This document shows, piece by piece, positions 9,392 through 17,361 of a stretch of DNA of 20,116 nucleotides. Source of the DNA: a virus; UHGV virus genome UHGV-1705587. One strand, given 5' to 3'. Numbering within the stretch: the stretch's first letter is position 1; each line of letters opens with the position of its first letter. Both the position numbers and the translations under genes were made by a program. The notes below the pieces were generated by a model, which saw nothing but the letters and a program-made list of their open reading frames with translations, had not been told where the DNA came from and made no database searches.

Positions 9392-10552
9392 ATGACGCAG
9401 GGCTTACCTGTATCCAACGTTGTAAACGTTGATGTGATCATCTCGCCGAAAGCGGCTACTGGTCGTAACTTCGGCGCACTGCTGATCCTCGGTTCTTCCA
9501 CTGTCATTCCGGTGCAGGAGCGCGTTCGCCTTTATGCGTCCGTTGATGACATTGGCGAGGACTTCGGAGTCGACAGCCCGGAATATGAAGCGGCGCAGGT
9601 TTTCTTCAGCCAGTCGCCGAAGCCGACGCAGGTTTATGTTGGCCGCTGGGCGAAGACGCTGACCTCTTCCGAAGGTGGAAGCGTGGAAACCATCGTGCAA
9701 GCTGTTAATGCCTGCCTGCAGTATACCAACTGGTATGGGCTGGTTGTCGCTGATGATGTTGCTGATGGCGATGATGTGCTTGATGCTGACGACGTGATTG
9801 AGGTTGCTAAACTCATCGAAGCGTCCAGCCTGAGCCGCATTTTCGGGGTAACGTCAGCCGACGCTGAGATCATCAGCACGACTTCGACGACCGATGTTGC
9901 GTCTAAATTAAAGGCCGGTAAGTATTCCCGTACCTTTATTCAATATTCCACCAGCAGCCCTTATGCGGCGGTTTCAGCTTTCGGTCGCGCGTTTACTGTC
10001 AATTTCAACGGCAGCAATACCACCATTACCCTGAAATTCAAACAGGAACCGAGCGTAACCTACGAAACGCTGACGGTAGGACAGGCGGCGGCTGTGGATG
10101 CGAAGAATGCGAACGTGTTCGTGTACTACGCCAACGACACGGCGATCCTGCAACAGGGTGTCATGGCGAACGGTGACTTCTTCGACGAGCGCCACGGGCT
10201 CGACTGGTTGCAGAACTACGTTCAGACCAACCTCTATAACCTGCTTTACACCAGCACCACCAAAATTCCGCAGACTGATGCCGGTGTGACCCGTCTGCTT
10301 TCCAACGTTGAACAGTCCATGGATCAGTCCGTCACGAACGGTCTGGTAGCGGCTGGCGTGTGGAATGGTGGCCCTATCGGACAGCTGAATTCCGGCGATA
10401 CGCTGACCAAAGGCTATTACGTGTATGCGCAACCGCTGTCCGAACAGGCGCAGGCCGACCGCGAAGCGCGCAAAGCACCGTTAATCCAGGTGGCCTGTAA
10501 GCTGGCTGGCGCAGTTCATTATGCCGATGTGCAGATCAACGTGGTTCGCTAA
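9392..10552 (+). CDS. Tail sheath protein (contractile tail)
   Basis: 386-aa ORF with GGAG RBS, directly upstream of a 146-aa tube-like gene, a chaperone and the tape measure gene: the sheath-tube-chaperone-tape measure order of contractile-tail phages (P2 FI-FII-E-T-like). Confidence 0.6.
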
Positions 10553-10562
10553 GGAGCGATAA

Positions 10563-11003
10563 ATGGCAACTTATTCTTTTCTCGATGTAACCGCGTCGCT
10601 CACCGGGCCGACCGGCGTTATCGATCTTGGTCAGGGTTCCGCCAACTCTGAGGAAGGTATCACCCAGACCATGGGCGGCAACAAGAACACCATGACCATC
10701 GGTGCCGATGGCGAAGTGATGCACAGCCTGCACGCCGATAAGTCAGGCACCATTACGGTGACGCTGCTGAAATCCTCCCCGGTGAACAAGAAGCTGTCTC
10801 TGGCGTATAACGCGCAAAGCCAGTCCTCTGCCACCTGGGGCAATAACGTGATCGTCATTCGCAACACGGCATCGGGTGATATTTCTACTGCGCGTTCGTG
10901 TGCATTCCAGAAACAGCCTGATTTCAATAACGCCAAAGAGGGCGGAACCGTCGCCTGGGTATTCGACTGCGGCAAGATTGACCAGCTGCTCGGGGAGTTT
11001 TAA
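10563..11003 (+). CDS. Tail tube protein
   Basis: 146-aa ORF with AGGAG RBS between the sheath and the tail assembly chaperone; size and position match a tail tube protein. Confidence 0.6.
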   Translation: MATYSFLDVTASLTGPTGVIDLGQGSANSEEGITQTMGGNKNTMTIGADGEVMHSLHADKSGTITVTLLKSSPVNKKLSLAYNAQSQSSATWGNNVIVIRNTASGDISTARSCAFQKQPDFNNAKEGGTVAWVFDCGKIDQLLGEF

Positions 11004-11006
11004 CGC

Positions 11007-11432
11007 ATGGAATTCGAAATTAAAGGCGTGAAATATCGCACCGCAAAGCTCAGCGTTTTCGAACAGCTGAAGGTGTCCCGCAAGCTGTTGCCGGTGCTGG
11101 CCGGGATGGTTTCTGACTTCCGGAGCGTTCAGGAGAAAATCAGCAGCAAAGACACCGAAGGCGCGATGGCTACCATCCTGCCAAAAATTGCGAATGCTGT
11201 GTCCGATCTGAGCGATGGCGACGTGGACGCTATCCTGTTCCCCTGCCTTTCCGTCGTTTCACGCGAGCACATGAAAGCCTGGGTGCCGGTCTGCCAGCAT
11301 GGCGAAATGGCGTTTGACGATATCGACCTGCTGACCATGCTGCAACTGGTGGCGCGGGTGGTCGCCGACTCGCTGGGAAATTTTTTGCAAGGACTCCCTA
11401 CCAGCGAGACGCCCACCCCGCCAGCGGAATAA
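11007..11432 (+). CDS. Tail assembly chaperone (P2 gpE-like), zero-frame product
   Basis: 141-aa ORF immediately upstream of the tape measure gene. Contains the slippery run AAATTTTTTG at 11378-11387 near its 3' end, and is followed by a 177-nt gap lacking an ATG-initiated ORF but open in the -1 frame. Confidence 0.65.
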   Translation: MEFEIKGVKYRTAKLSVFEQLKVSRKLLPVLAGMVSDFRSVQEKISSKDTEGAMATILPKIANAVSDLSDGDVDAILFPCLSVVSREHMKAWVPVCQHGEMAFDDIDLLTMLQLVARVVADSLGNFLQGLPTSETPTPPAE

Positions 11433-11620
11433 CCTTCAATAGCCTGCCGGGCGGTGAAGATTTTATTCTTCGTCCGGCGCTTGCCTTCCATATTGACCAG
11501 AAAGACCTTAACAGCGGTGCGGTAGACCTCTGCCGCATCGCGCTTCTCAATGACTACCTCGACATGCGCGAGGATAACGACGCCCGGGTAGATAAATGGA
11601 GAGCGGACAATGAGCGGTAA
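11387..11620 (+). CDS. Predicted -1 frameshift extension of the tail assembly chaperone (P2 E+E'-like); fused product spans 11007-11620
   Basis: The -1 frame is open with no stop from the slippery site T_TTT_TTG (11381-11387) to TAA at 11618-11620, filling the gap and overlapping the tape measure start by 11 nt. Predicted extension: ARTPYQRDAHPASGITFNSLPGGEDFILRPALAFHIDQKDLNSGAVDLCRIALLNDYLDMREDNDARVDKWRADNER. Fused product about 204 aa. Confidence 0.55.
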   Translation, partial: ARTPYQRDAHPASGITFNSLPGGEDFILRPALAFHIDQKDLNSGAVDLCRIALLNDYLDMREDNDARVDKWRADNER

Positions 11621-13877
11621 CGCAGATACGATTAAAGATTTCCTTGTTTCGCTGGGATTCGATATCGATCAGGCTGGCGCTAATAAGTTTGAAGCCGTGC
11701 TGAAAGGCGTTACAGCTAACGTTCTGAAGGTCGGCGCGGTGGTGGAAGGCGCAGCGCTGAGCATTGTCGGATTTACCACTCAGATCGCGAACGGTCTGGA
11801 TAAAATTTACTGGGCATCCCAGCGGACGGGGGCCAGTGTCCAGGGCATCAAAGCGCTGGGATACGCCGCATCGCAAACCGGTGCCAGCGCCGAGTCGGCT
11901 ATGTCCTCCCTCGAAGGGCTGGCCGGTTTCATGCGTAGCAATCCGGGGGCGGAAGGCTTCCTGAACCGTCTTGGTGTCCAGACCCGAGATGCCAGCGGAA
12001 AGATGCGTGATACTGCGGCCATCTTTACTGGCGTTGGGCAAAAGCTCAACAACATGCCGTATTACCGCGCGAAGCAATACGCGCAGATGCTTGGCATCGA
12101 TGAAAACACGCTGATGGCGATGCGGCGCGGCATGAATGGCTTTACCGCCGATTACCAGTCTATGCTGCAAAAGACAGGGTTCAACGCTGATAAGGCGGCT
12201 GTGCAGTCCAATAAATTCATGACGTCCATGCGCGGGCTTACGTCGCTGTTCGGCATTATGCGGGACAAGATCGGCTCAAACCTCGCTGGTGGTCTTGCTG
12301 GTTCGCTGGACAGCCTGCGGCGGCGCATCCTCGACAACTTCCCGAAGATTGAAGAGACGCTGACCAGAGTTATTAAAGGCGTGATCTGGCTTGCGAACGC
12401 CTTCACGCGAATGGCGTGGCGGCTCATACAGGGCGCTGGCTCTGTCATTGACTGGTGGAAGCGTCTTGACGATGGCAGTAAAAATCTGCTGAAAATATTC
12501 GGTGCTCTACTTGTCGCATGGCGTCTGCTTAATTCTGCGTTCCTGAAATCCCCGATTGGAATTATCACCACGCTGATTCTGGCGATCGGATTACTCTATG
12601 ACGATTATCAGACGTGGAAAGAAGGCGGTAAAAGCCTGATTGACTGGTCCAAGTGGGAGCCTGCAATAGAAAAGGCGAAAAAGGCAATTCTCTGGCTGCG
12701 CGATAAGCTTCTGGGGCTGAAAGATTCTGTTGGTGGATGGCAGAACTCGCTGGAAATTTTGGCTACTTTCATCGCTGGGGTATGGGTAACAAAAGTATTG
12801 GGAGCATTCGCAAAAATATCCGGTCTTCCGATACCTCCATGGCTTAAATTATGGGGAGCGTATGCTGGTTACCTGGTTTCAGATCGTGAAAACATAAAAG
12901 CCAGTGCTAAATCATCTTTGGACTATACCAAAAGGAACATTGGTGATGCTCTTGCTACGGTTGGCATCAAAACCGACCTTGGGCGAAAAGATGTTAGCGA
13001 GGTAAGAGAATGGCCCGCATGGATGGATTGGCTGCATGGTGGCCCAGGTAAGATTATTCGTCAGGCGCAAAGCAATGGCGTCGTTTATGGCGATAATGTT
13101 CAGCCTGACATTCCCGGGGCGGAACAGCATGTTCGTAGTAATGAAATTGCCCCGCATGAAAGAGATGAAATAAAAAACCGTCAGCAGGCTGCTAATGGTT
13201 ATCTTGAAAAAATCTCAGACGGGATTGCCAAAATCGGTAATTTATTTTTCTCCCCGGCTGGAGCTGCTGAAATCTCTCCAAATATATCGGGTGACCCCTC
13301 CCAGTTTGCGCAATCAGTCAAACGTCCACAGGCCACAGCCCAGGGCAAAGTATTGCTCGACTGGATGGGGCCAATGTTCAATAAACTTGAGTCGCTTTAT
13401 CAACTTCCAGCTGGTCTATTGAAAAGTGTGGCGATAACCGAGTCAGGTGGTAACCAGTTCGCCATGTCCGGCGCGGGTGCAAAGGGGCTGTTCCAGTTCA
13501 TGGATGGCACGGCGCGAGACATGGGCCTGCGTGGTAACGATGTGTTCGACCCGGAAAAGTCAGCTCAGGCAGCCGCTAAGTACCTTAGCCAGCTATTGCG
13601 GCAGAACGGCGGAGACCTTAGCAAAGCACTTGCATCATATAACTGGGGAATCGGGAACGTTCAACGTTATGGAATGGGGCTAATGCCGCAGGAAACGCGC
13701 AATTACATTCCGAAAGTAATGAGCAATATGCCCACCAGCGCCCCGGTGATTCAGCAGGAAACGAACATTAACATCCACGGCGTTTCCGATCCTCGCGAAG
13801 CTGCCCGTTTGACTGTTGACCGTCAAAAGGGTGTGAATTCACAGTTAACCCAGCAACTCCCCGCAGGACCGAGATAA
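11610..13877 (+). CDS. Tail tape measure protein with C-terminal lytic transglycosylase (SLT) domain
   Basis: 755-aa ORF with GGAGAG RBS, after the chaperone/frameshift region. Two hydrophobic segments (LLKIFGALLVAWRLLNSAFLKSPIGIITTLILAIGLLY and LEILATFIAGVWVTKVLGAFAKI). C-terminal region has SLT catalytic signatures ESGGN...GAKGLFQF...YNWG (about nt 13390-13700). Confidence 0.8.
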   Translation: MSGNADTIKDFLVSLGFDIDQAGANKFEAVLKGVTANVLKVGAVVEGAALSIVGFTTQIANGLDKIYWASQRTGASVQGIKALGYAASQTGASAESAMSSLEGLAGFMRSNPGAEGFLNRLGVQTRDASGKMRDTAAIFTGVGQKLNNMPYYRAKQYAQMLGIDENTLMAMRRGMNGFTADYQSMLQKTGFNADKAAVQSNKFMTSMRGLTSLFGIMRDKIGSNLAGGLAGSLDSLRRRILDNFPKIEETLTRVIKGVIWLANAFTRMAWRLIQGAGSVIDWWKRLDDGSKNLLKIFGALLVAWRLLNSAFLKSPIGIITTLILAIGLLYDDYQTWKEGGKSLIDWSKWEPAIEKAKKAILWLRDKLLGLKDSVGGWQNSLEILATFIAGVWVTKVLGAFAKISGLPIPPWLKLWGAYAGYLVSDRENIKASAKSSLDYTKRNIGDALATVGIKTDLGRKDVSEVREWPAWMDWLHGGPGKIIRQAQSNGVVYGDNVQPDIPGAEQHVRSNEIAPHERDEIKNRQQAANGYLEKISDGIAKIGNLFFSPAGAAEISPNISGDPSQFAQSVKRPQATAQGKVLLDWMGPMFNKLESLYQLPAGLLKSVAITESGGNQFAMSGAGAKGLFQFMDGTARDMGLRGNDVFDPEKSAQAAAKYLSQLLRQNGGDLSKALASYNWGIGNVQRYGMGLMPQETRNYIPKVMSNMPTSAPVIQQETNINIHGVSDPREAARLTVDRQKGVNSQLTQQLPAGPR

Positions 13878-16216: not shown

Positions 16217-16447
16217 ATGAAGATAACTATTTTTTCTGATGATCATGTCCAGTCAGTTGATGCCCCTGATGGAACTTTAAGCTGGACCATGCTGAACTCT
16301 GATGGCTCCAAATCAGAGGCTAAAGTAGAAATGTATGAATATCGAGAATTATCGGTTCATAAATTCTGTTATATCGCTCGCTTTAGGGACGTTGAAATTA
16401 GTGAGATGCGACATGCCGCTGTTAAACATGGCTATGACGTAAATTAG
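16217..16447 (+). CDS. Moron gene B: small cytoplasmic protein of unknown function
   Basis: 76-aa ORF 11 nt after gene A, no signal peptide, weak RBS. About 39% GC by hand count, the most AT-rich coding segment in the window. Followed by a 176-bp AT-rich spacer and an intrinsic terminator. Confidence 0.45.
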   Translation: MKITIFSDDHVQSVDAPDGTLSWTMLNSDGSKSEAKVEMYEYRELSVHKFCYIARFRDVEISEMRHAAVKHGYDVN

Positions 16448-16585
16448 TGCAATATTAGGATCGCAGAGAGCAGATTTTTTGATTATCATTTATTTGAGCA
16501 TTTGACTGGGTGTTATACACCAAGCGCCACCCGAAAGGGGAAAGGGAGACGATAAGCCGTTTCAGGTTAAATGCTCACATCTCAT

Positions 16586-16612
16586 AAGGTCGCCATTGTG
16601 CGGCCTTTTTTT
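16586..16612 (+). terminator. Rho-independent terminator downstream of the moron cassette
   Basis: Stem GGUCGC (16588-16593) pairs with GCGGCC (16600-16605), one G-U wobble, 6-nt loop, optionally extended by two A-U pairs, followed by T7 at 16606-16612. Located 11 nt upstream of the spike gene ATG. Confidence 0.5.
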
Positions 16613-16623
16613 ATGGGGTTTTT

Positions 16624-17361
16624 ATGCCAATTCCAACTCAATCACAGATCGGCGGAGAGCAGCAGACCGCGCAGGCCATAGCCGATTCGGTGTCTACCCA
16701 GATGCGCGTAGCGATGCCCGGCATCATTCAGTCGTTCGATCCTGATACTGTTACCTGCACGGTAGAGGTGGCGCTACGCGGTATTGTTGGCGACGGCTCC
16801 ACCGAATTAAAACCGCTGGTGGATGTGCCGGTTATCTTCCCGCGCGGTGGCGGTTGCACACTGACCTTTCCGGTTAAAGAAGGCGACGAGTGCCTGCTGA
16901 TCTTTGCCGACCGTTGCATCGATTTCTGGTGGCAGAGCGGCGGCGTTCAGGAGACCGTCGACCCGCGTCAGCATGATTTATCGGATGCGTTCGCCATCGT
17001 TGGCCCGCAGTCGCAAGCACAAAAAATCGGTGGAATCAGTACCGGAGCAACGCAGCTGCGCAGCGACGATGGGAGCACGTATTTTGAGCTCAACCCCACC
17101 ACGCAGAAAATTAAAATTGTAGCGCCAGGCGGCCTGGATGTTATCGCGCCTGAATCGACATTCTCAGCGAAGGTAACGATTACCGGTCTACTCACCTGGA
17201 TGGGGGGGATGGTCGGCAGTCTTGCCAGCGGAACAGCGGCGAAAATTACTGGTGCGATTGAATTCTTTGGGACGCTTAAATCTAACGGTAAATCTATTGA
17301 TGACACGCACACCCACAAAGGCGTTCAGACGGGTAGCGGCAATTCTGGTGGGGTAAACTGA
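16624..17361 (+). CDS. Baseplate central spike / baseplate assembly protein V-like
   Basis: 245-aa ORF, first gene of a V-W-J-I-H-like block. Gly-rich C-terminus with an HTH (His-x-His) motif (nt 17308-17316), reminiscent of the metal-binding apex of gpV-type spikes. Confidence 0.55.
   Translation: MPIPTQSQIGGEQQTAQAIADSVSTQMRVAMPGIIQSFDPDTVTCTVEVALRGIVGDGSTELKPLVDVPVIFPRGGGCTLTFPVKEGDECLLIFADRCIDFWWQSGGVQETVDPRQHDLSDAFAIVGPQSQAQKIGGISTGATQLRSDDGSTYFELNPTTQKIKIVAPGGLDVIAPESTFSAKVTITGLLTWMGGMVGSLASGTAAKITGAIEFFGTLKSNGKSIDDTHTHKGVQTGSGNSGGVN

Follow-up and report, generated by a model that had tools for sequence, protein, structure and literature searches.

Tail chaperone frameshifting in described phages and its predicted occurrence at the UHGV-1705587 locus

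Translational frameshifting in the tail assembly chaperone (TAC) gene is a well-described trait of long-tailed double-stranded DNA phages (Levin 1993; Xu, Hendrix & Duda 2004, 2013, 2014, summarised in PMC5009743). In phage P2, gpE and the longer E+E' product come from a -1 shift at GGT TTT TTG, and the E' stop codon overlaps the start of gene T (Christie et al. 2002 as cited in PMC3091744; GenBank AF063097). In phage lambda, the short and long products of the G/GT locus are made in a ratio of about 30:1 (PMC5009743). Here, we describe a candidate frameshift of this kind in UHGV virus genome UHGV-1705587, a stretch of 20,116 nucleotides (nt) referred to below as the window. A 141-amino acid (aa) chaperone gene carries a slippery run near its 3' end, and the -1 frame then stays open up to the tape measure gene. 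On comparative sequence evidence, we consider it likely (probability about 0.88) that a -1 ribosomal frameshift in this TAC gene makes a 204-aa long chaperone. The features on which the argument turns are:

11007..11432, + strand: short tail assembly chaperone (TAC-N), 141 aa, zero frame; Phage_TAC_15, phrog_1688
11375..11387, + strand: slippery run GGGAAATTTTTTG, 13 nt; G_GGA_AAT, A_AAT_TTT and T_TTT_TTG overlapping in phase
11387..11620, + strand: -1 frame extension (TAC-C), 77 codons plus TAA; DUF6889, phrog_4364
11498..11611, + strand: DUF6889 core, extension residues 38–75 of 77; Pfam match, predicted helical
11610..13877, + strand: tape measure, 755 aa; phrog_2276 (E 7e-220), Pfam SLT (E 1e-24)

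The resemblance to P2 E/E+E', which the first-pass annotation of this DNA had pointed out, agrees with the published accounts. Both systems belong to contractile tails, follow the order sheath, tube, chaperone and tape measure, involve a -1 shift (predicted here) and carry T_TTT_TTG in the same phase. The codons at the slip are GGT TTT TTG in P2 and AAT TTT TTG in the window, and in each case the extension stops over the tape measure ATG (P2, AATGAGTAA; window, AATGAGCGGTAA). P2 and its relatives are not known to have an RNA structure downstream of the slip (PMC3091744), and none was found at the window site either. The two loci differ in the lengths of their proteins (91 and 142 aa in P2 versus 141 and 204 aa here), in the embedding of the T-run within three overlapping heptamers here, and in their Pfam families, which are Phage_TAC_7 and Phage_P2_GpE in P2 versus Phage_TAC_15 and DUF6889 here. 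Homology to P2 E/E' was considered and rejected: BLASTP of gpE against the fusion returned an E value of 46, and hhalign of E' against the extension profile gave a probability of 0.35%. With E values up to 10 admitted, Pfam recovered just PF21822 and PF21829 in the fusion. With no sequence homology detectable, the chaperone is an analogue of P2 E/E+E', not a sequence homologue.

Lambda offers a second comparison. There, the N-terminal part binds the tape measure and the C-terminal part binds the tube or major tail protein, a division of labour that we presume here. Lambda differs in being a siphovirus, in its slip motif (G_GGA_AAG) and in its unrelated protein families. The hallmarks of a lambda G/GT-type locus are nonetheless present in the window: overlapping open reading frames (ORFs) between the tube and tape measure genes, a -1 ORF lacking a start codon and ribosome-binding site, an in-phase heptamer within the overlap, and conservation of both site and frame, in this case across 82 alleles and eight distant phages. 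By analogy, the locus would work like P2 E/E+E' and lambda G/GT (PMC5009743), and it belongs to neither family.

True homologues exist in two annotated phages. Klebsiella phage Mulock (CPT_Mulock_014/015, MN098327) is about 55% identical over the fusion and has the identical 13-nt run. Burkholderia phage Magia (CPT_Magia_015/016, MT701587) is about 36% identical and carries C_CCT_TTT at the homologous position. In both GenBank records a joined coding sequence (CDS) is labelled 'tape measure chaperone frameshift product', and these labels are curator predictions. Unlike Mulock and Magia, the window's own lineage is either unannotated, as in Citrobacter phage Omnitron, or split by the Prokaryotic Genome Annotation Pipeline (PGAP) into two CDSs. 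A further predicted frameshift, giving TAC-N and TAC-NC, has been put forward for the Pakpunavirus/Vandenendeviridae group with phage Adele (PMC12846349). Phage Adele resembles our case in that an 'intergenic' hypothetical ORF between TAC and tape measure was argued in silico to be a -1 extension, in its conserved poly-T motif with no -1 stops across many genomes, and in a related E217-like virion architecture. Judged by its description, it is set apart by its motif (GTTTTT), its protein families and its hosts.

The slippery run in the chaperone gene

The zero-frame product is confidently assigned to the chaperone family, with an E value of 5e-33 to Pfam Phage_TAC_15 (PF21822; 114.7 bits against a gathering cutoff of 22) and of 1e-56 to phrog_1688, 'tail assembly chaperone'. 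Near the 3' end of its gene (11007–11432) lies AAATTTTTTG (11378–11387), just where the first-pass annotation had placed a slippery run containing two overlapping heptamers, A_AAT_TTT (11378–11384) and T_TTT_TTG (11381–11387). The zero-frame codons from 11373 read CTG, GGA (11376), AAT (11379), TTT (11382) and TTG (11385). Both heptamers are in the X_XXY_YYZ phase because the zero-frame codons are GGA AAT TTT TTG. The two heptamers stand, but the count of two does not: a third in-phase heptamer, G_GGA_AAT (11375–11381), had been overlooked and extends the run to 13 nt.

Such motifs are uncommon in this DNA. The 25 plus-strand ORFs of the window (6,446 codons) contain 11 in-phase X_XXW_WWN heptamers, three of which are found here, and at least 77 open -1 codons follow just 3.1% of in-frame positions in the window. 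The gap after the chaperone gene measures 177 nt and is one of just two sizeable gaps in the module. The arrangement of a slippery run followed by an open -1 frame exceeds chance.

The -1 frame as coding sequence

Downstream of the run, the -1 frame comprises 77 codons (11387–11617) and a TAA stop (11618–11620), and is open already from 11318. It fills the otherwise gene-less 177-nt gap and overlaps the tape measure start by 11 nt, the tape measure ATG sitting within the last extension codons. The resulting fusion, join(11007..11387,11387..11620), has 204 aa (127 + 77), and the extension reads ARTPYQ...WRADNER over its 77 residues. The first-pass annotation had given the same extents for the open frame and the fusion product, and had noted that the frame bridges the gap. 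The extension has its own family matches: DUF6889 (PF21829; E 8e-12, 45.1 bits against a gathering cutoff of 23.9) and phrog_4364 ('unknown function'; E 1e-17). We found no promoter or terminator between 11433 and 11609. The chaperone and tape measure genes share a reading frame, and the extension lies in the -1 frame of both.

To compare the locus across relatives, we drew on one-per-species genomes (76 loci) and IMG/VR (80 loci); removal of broken and duplicate loci left 82 distinct alleles, with TAC identity down to 46%. In 81 of the 82, the -1 frame is open for 75–82 codons up to the tape measure start. The first-pass annotation had proposed a search of related phages for stops in the -1 frame downstream of the T-run; this turned up a single truncated allele (L029) among about 83 usable ones. 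An apparent indel in L029 cuts the -1 frame to 37 codons. Separately, the Apirhabdus loci L067 and L075 have early stops inside the TAC itself. Prophage decay or faulty assembly probably accounts for all three. In most alleles, exactly 43 nt separate the slip run from the zero-frame stop.

Substitutions across the alleles follow the -1 frame. In a codon alignment of the part of the extension that overlaps no other gene, the entropies at the three codon positions are 0.73, 0.62 and 1.41 bits. Where the extension overlaps the last part of the TAC gene (15 codons), variation still follows the -1 frame (1.00, 0.71 and 1.24 bits). Extension residues G44, D47, L48, D56, N64 and W71 are invariant, as is a proline, and the third bases of the codons for these P, G, D, L, D, N and W residues vary freely. 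Conservation reaches up to the slip run, directly after which the A-R-T-P sequence has an invariant R2 and a P4 present in at least 90% of alleles. More distantly, phages of Acinetobacter, Burkholderia, Ralstonia, Bordetella and Edwardsiella (30–40% identity) retain the -1 DUF6889 extension. This pattern marks the extension as a conserved protein family on which purifying selection acts in the -1 frame.

The same data bear on whether the open frame and the T-run might have arisen by accident, the gap being a non-coding spacer or a decayed gene. Off-frame ORFs do occur in DNA of roughly 55% GC, as the 3.1% of positions followed by at least 77 open -1 codons attests. Against this, the -1 frame has significant Pfam and PHROG matches, it is open in all but one allele and in homologues of as little as 30% identity, with substitutions patterned by codon position, and the slip codons are frozen at synonymous positions (see below). 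We regard an accidental origin as next to impossible; the comparative sequence data refute it.

Improbability of an independent gene for the extension

RefSeq/PGAP offers a different reading of the extension, namely that it is an independent small gene for a 'DUF6889 family protein' with its own start codon. A separate 63-aa CDS is annotated in an Escherichia coli prophage 98.4% identical to the window (L157, 2030–2221, equivalent to window positions 11429–11620), hundreds of stand-alone DUF6889 ORFs are present in protein databases, and some ATG, GTG or TTG codon lies upstream of the conserved core in 24 of the 82 alleles. The start chosen by PGAP, however, is an ATA at window-equivalent position 11429, four bases before the TAC stop and without a Shine-Dalgarno (SD) sequence. 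The window has no ATG, GTG or TTG in the -1 frame from the upstream stop (11315–11317) to 11564, which is inside the conserved domain. Likewise, no such codon precedes the conserved LP motif in 58 of the 82 alleles; the starts in the remaining 24 are not conserved in position, and just two of them have even a weak SD-like match, so that the sporadic starts are almost all without an SD sequence. The stand-alone DUF6889 calls scatter from 49 to 102 aa (proteins P0121–P0240), as expected because arbitrary start picking on a start-less ORF would give such a spread. Moreover, the conserved A-R-T-P lies upstream of every candidate start, and the coding pattern persists inside the TAC overlap. A separate gene is thus very improbable, and a frameshifted extension of the chaperone is the preferred reading.

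The names 'NTP pyrophosphohydrolase' and 'lytic transglycosylase' have been given to many database copies of DUF6889, older records among them. The tape measure protein has an SLT lytic transglycosylase domain near its C-terminus (residues 589–689), and this domain in the adjoining gene probably explains the spurious 'lytic transglycosylase' names.

Constraint on the slip codons

The run reads GGAAATTTTTTG in nearly all 82 alleles. Codon choice at the slip site departs strongly from that elsewhere in the same genes:

Gly codon GGA: 81/82 at the slip site; background 11%
Asn codon AAT: 80/80 at the slip site; background 39%
Phe codon TTT: 81/81 at the slip site; background 51%
Leu codon TTG: about 74 of 78 Leu-coding alleles at the slip site; background 11%

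Third-position entropies at the four slip codons are 0.10, 0, 0 and 0.42 bits, against 1.2–1.7 bits for most codons just upstream. The four-codon window at the slip, at 0.49–0.52 bits, is the lowest of 133 in the gene, for which the median is 5.65. Together, these values indicate that the slip run is under selection at the nucleotide level.

Individual alleles help to localise the shift. In L033 (GGT AGT TTT TTT C), a -1-frame TAG stands immediately 5' of the T-run, so that ribosomes can enter the -1 frame only on T_TTT_TTT. In L042 (GGA AGT TTT TTG), T_TTT_TTG is the sole heptamer kept. The first G of G_GGA_AAT is lost in five alleles. The last base of the run varies between G, A, C and T, and a TTN codon able to re-pair with TTT always remains. 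In the more distant phages, an in-phase T_TTN is found at the homologous LG(N)F motif and the heptamers around it differ, as in these five:

Burkholderia phage Magia: C_CCT_TTT
Burkholderia phage E192a: TCT TTT A
Edwardsiella phage ZHS: GAT TTT A
Acinetobacter phage Ab105-1phi: G_GGA_AAT + A_AAT_TTT
Ralstonia phage PY059: G_GGT_TTT + T_TTT_TTC

From this comparison, the in-phase T_TTN emerges as the family-wide core of the slip site. Within the enterobacterial clade, the strongest candidate is T_TTT_TTG, possibly aided by the two upstream heptamers. The choice of heptamer affects the expected junction peptide. The GNFF/ART junction proposed in the first-pass annotation would be produced only by a slip at G_GGA_AAT or A_AAT_TTT or by P-site slippage; a tandem slip on T_TTT_TTG, the event annotated for P2, would give GNFL/ART.

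Enterobacterial-type TAC loci (52–81% identity) also appear in records assigned to Bacteroidota and Bacillota: Chryseobacterium sp. 18061 (L059), Bacillus sp. AFS073361 (L076, a 395-bp contig) and Elizabethkingia phage EKP1 (H41). These records suggest assembly contamination or an unexpectedly wide host range.

A natural fusion allele and its predicted structure

One allele (L167, 1895–1910; protein P0004, from Logan SRR23924998) has seven Ts, GGGAAATTTTTTTG, and encodes a single 213-aa TAC–DUF6889 ORF with the junction GNFFA. Either a genuine fusion-only variant or an assembly error in the homopolymer could explain it. An AlphaFold2 model of this natural fusion homologue reached a predicted local distance difference test (pLDDT) score of 77 and a predicted template modelling score of 0.69, with an N-domain, a disordered linker (residues 140–149) and a helical C-domain with a pLDDT of about 87–90. 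The best matches of the model in BFVD are predicted phage tail assembly chaperones (E 7e-9 and 4e-8). Among solved structures, Foldseek against the PDB returned nothing below an E value of 1, and phmmer of PDB sequences gave only a chance hit. The fold similarity of the chaperone is therefore to predicted models only.

Stimulatory elements, efficiency and polymerase slippage

A stimulated -1 frameshift of the dnaX or IS3 type, with a hairpin or pseudoknot, was considered and rejected, as no conserved structure was found downstream of the run, where one would be expected 5–9 nt from the heptamer. One upstream element may be of interest:

11356..11361, + strand: GGGTGG, possible SD-like element (speculative)

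This hexamer lies 13–19 nt before the heptamers. GGTGG is present in 68 of the 82 alleles and the full GGGTGG in 53; the hexamer depends on the Arg codon being CGG, as it is in 54/82, and the Val codon is GTG in 77/82. The element is inseparable from the conserved R-V-V coding and from shared ancestry. We therefore leave it as speculation whether GGGTGG is an SD-like frameshift stimulator or merely encodes R-V-V.

Several points weigh against the proposed frameshift or against its finer details. Folds of 63–133 nt past the site were no better than shuffles (z-scores of +0.85, -0.68 and -1.01), RNAalifold on 28 diverse alleles predicted 0 pairs, and an Rfam scan of the whole window gave no match. 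With no stimulatory RNA found, efficiency must therefore rest on the motif alone. In E. coli reporters, the U_UUG tetramer alone raised frameshifting 1.8–3.6-fold over background, and U_UU.U_UU.G is not among the motifs listed, in the part of that study available to us, as exceeding 0.1% without a stimulator (PMC4066793). Two relatives lack the T6 run altogether: a Salmonella allele (L060, GGGAAATATTTTG) and Bordetella phage IFTN9 (GGA AAT ACT TTC). Both keep G_GGA_AAT, the only canonical heptamer left in them, together with an in-phase T_TTN; the choice of T_TTT_TTG as the working site is therefore tentative. Because the alleles share ancestry, the conservation counts do not amount to independent events. 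The Mulock genome announcement makes no mention of a frameshift, and in the literature on the Phage_TAC_15/DUF6889 family we found no experimental detection of a long product, be it by mass spectrometry, western blot or reporter.

The T-run also invites an explanation at the level of transcription, in which RNA polymerase adds one U within the U6 run so that a subset of mRNAs is fused in frame. A T6 homopolymer does lie at the junction, one inserted T yields exactly the fusion frame (compare the natural seven-T allele), and the products would be indistinguishable from those of a -1 frameshift at the upstream heptamers. Efficient slippage by bacterial RNA polymerase needs about 8–9 or more A or T residues, however, a threshold by which T6 is short. 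The -1 extension is kept with just T4 in Magia, E192a, ZHS and Ab105-1phi, and in L060 and IFTN9 the run is broken and only a short in-phase T_TTN is left. What is conserved is the phase of X_XXY_YYZ or T_TTN relative to the zero frame, which matters for tRNA re-pairing and not for the polymerase. In addition, the annotated event at the identical site in P2 is a translational frameshift (PMC3091744). Polymerase slippage is accordingly improbable, though marginally less so than a separate DUF6889 gene, and ribosomal frameshifting remains the favoured explanation.

Proposed mechanism

We infer that two proteins are made, and likewise their ratio, the heptamer used and their binding partners. Most ribosomes would translate 11007–11432 to give the 141-aa short chaperone, and a minority would slip back one base on the run at 11375–11387. 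Most likely, tRNA-Phe and tRNA-Leu would shift their pairing from UUU-UUG to UUU-UUU, possibly with a contribution from the two upstream heptamers. Slipped ribosomes would bypass the stop at 11430, append 77 residues containing the helical DUF6889 domain, and terminate at the TAA at 11618–11620, atop the tape measure start codon.

For the roles of the two products, lambda G/GT and P2 E/E+E' provide the model. By analogy with them, the N-domain shared by both forms would coat the tape measure protein, and the rare C-domain would recruit tube subunits and so start tail polymerisation; neither form would remain in the virion. On the lambda precedent, tail assembly would need the two forms in balance. 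The C-terminal domain of the long chaperone is presumed to bind the tail tube protein, as lambda gpGT binds gpV (PMC5009743). A more specific proposal, which we offer tentatively and hold to be rather unlikely in its full form, is that GGGAAATTTTTTG is a compound slip site. Its three heptamers, perhaps with GGGUGG, would reach a useful efficiency without RNA structure and yield GNFF-ART and GNFL-ART isoforms, and DUF6889 would be a hitherto unrecognised tube-recruiting module of E217/Pam3-type contractile tails. As a tube recruiter, DUF6889 would be analogous to, and unrelated to, lambda T and P2 E'.

Genomic context of the locus

The window covers the structural module of a phage or prophage with a contractile tail of the E217/Pam3/XM1 type. 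The chaperone and its extension sit between the tube and tape measure genes, in the order sheath, tube, TAC, extension and tape measure, and a GGAG lies 8 nt 5' of the tape measure ATG (11610). The remaining genes of the module, in order, are:

Early part of the module: small terminase, portal, Mu-F-like protein, cement protein and major capsid
Between major capsid and sheath: neck terminator
9392..10552, + strand: tail sheath; Pfam DUF3383 (E 5.6e-104), phrog_205 'tail sheath'
10563..11003, + strand: tail tube; Pfam KPP10_Orf10 / Phage_Tube_PhiTE (E 1.7e-59)
3' of the tape measure: baseplate genes

The nearest phage record is Citrobacter phage Omnitron, which has 98.4% nt identity, and prophages near-identical to the window are present in E. 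coli, Enterobacter, Pantoea and Shimwellia genomes. Further downstream, a low-GC island (16217–16620; 37–38% GC against about 55% in its flanks) contains a 76-aa ORF without a Pfam match, followed by a 176-nt gap. The gap ends in a hairpin and T-run (about 16588–16615) just 5' of a baseplate gene at 16624. The island resembles a moron that has entered the tail module.

Significance

This locus is an ordinary, well-supported case of the tailed-phage chaperone slip. The mechanism is already known: it has been textbook material since 2004, GenBank already joins the two CDSs in the homologues Mulock and Magia, and the understanding of how frameshifting works is unchanged. What is added here is quantitative comparative support, localisation of the shift, a third heptamer, and the identity of DUF6889/phrog_4364. 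DUF6889 had no mention in the literature that we searched. The compact, structure-free slip site could be used for studying motif-only frameshifting in E. coli. For annotation, the finding would correct a systematic PGAP error, in which a separate DUF6889 CDS is called from non-canonical or arbitrary starts in hundreds of Enterobacterales prophages. For the family, DUF6889/phrog_4364 would be the frameshift-encoded C-terminal domain of the Phage_TAC_15 chaperone, which gives this Pfam domain a function and extends the tail chaperone frameshift rule to E217/Pam3-like temperate myoviruses.

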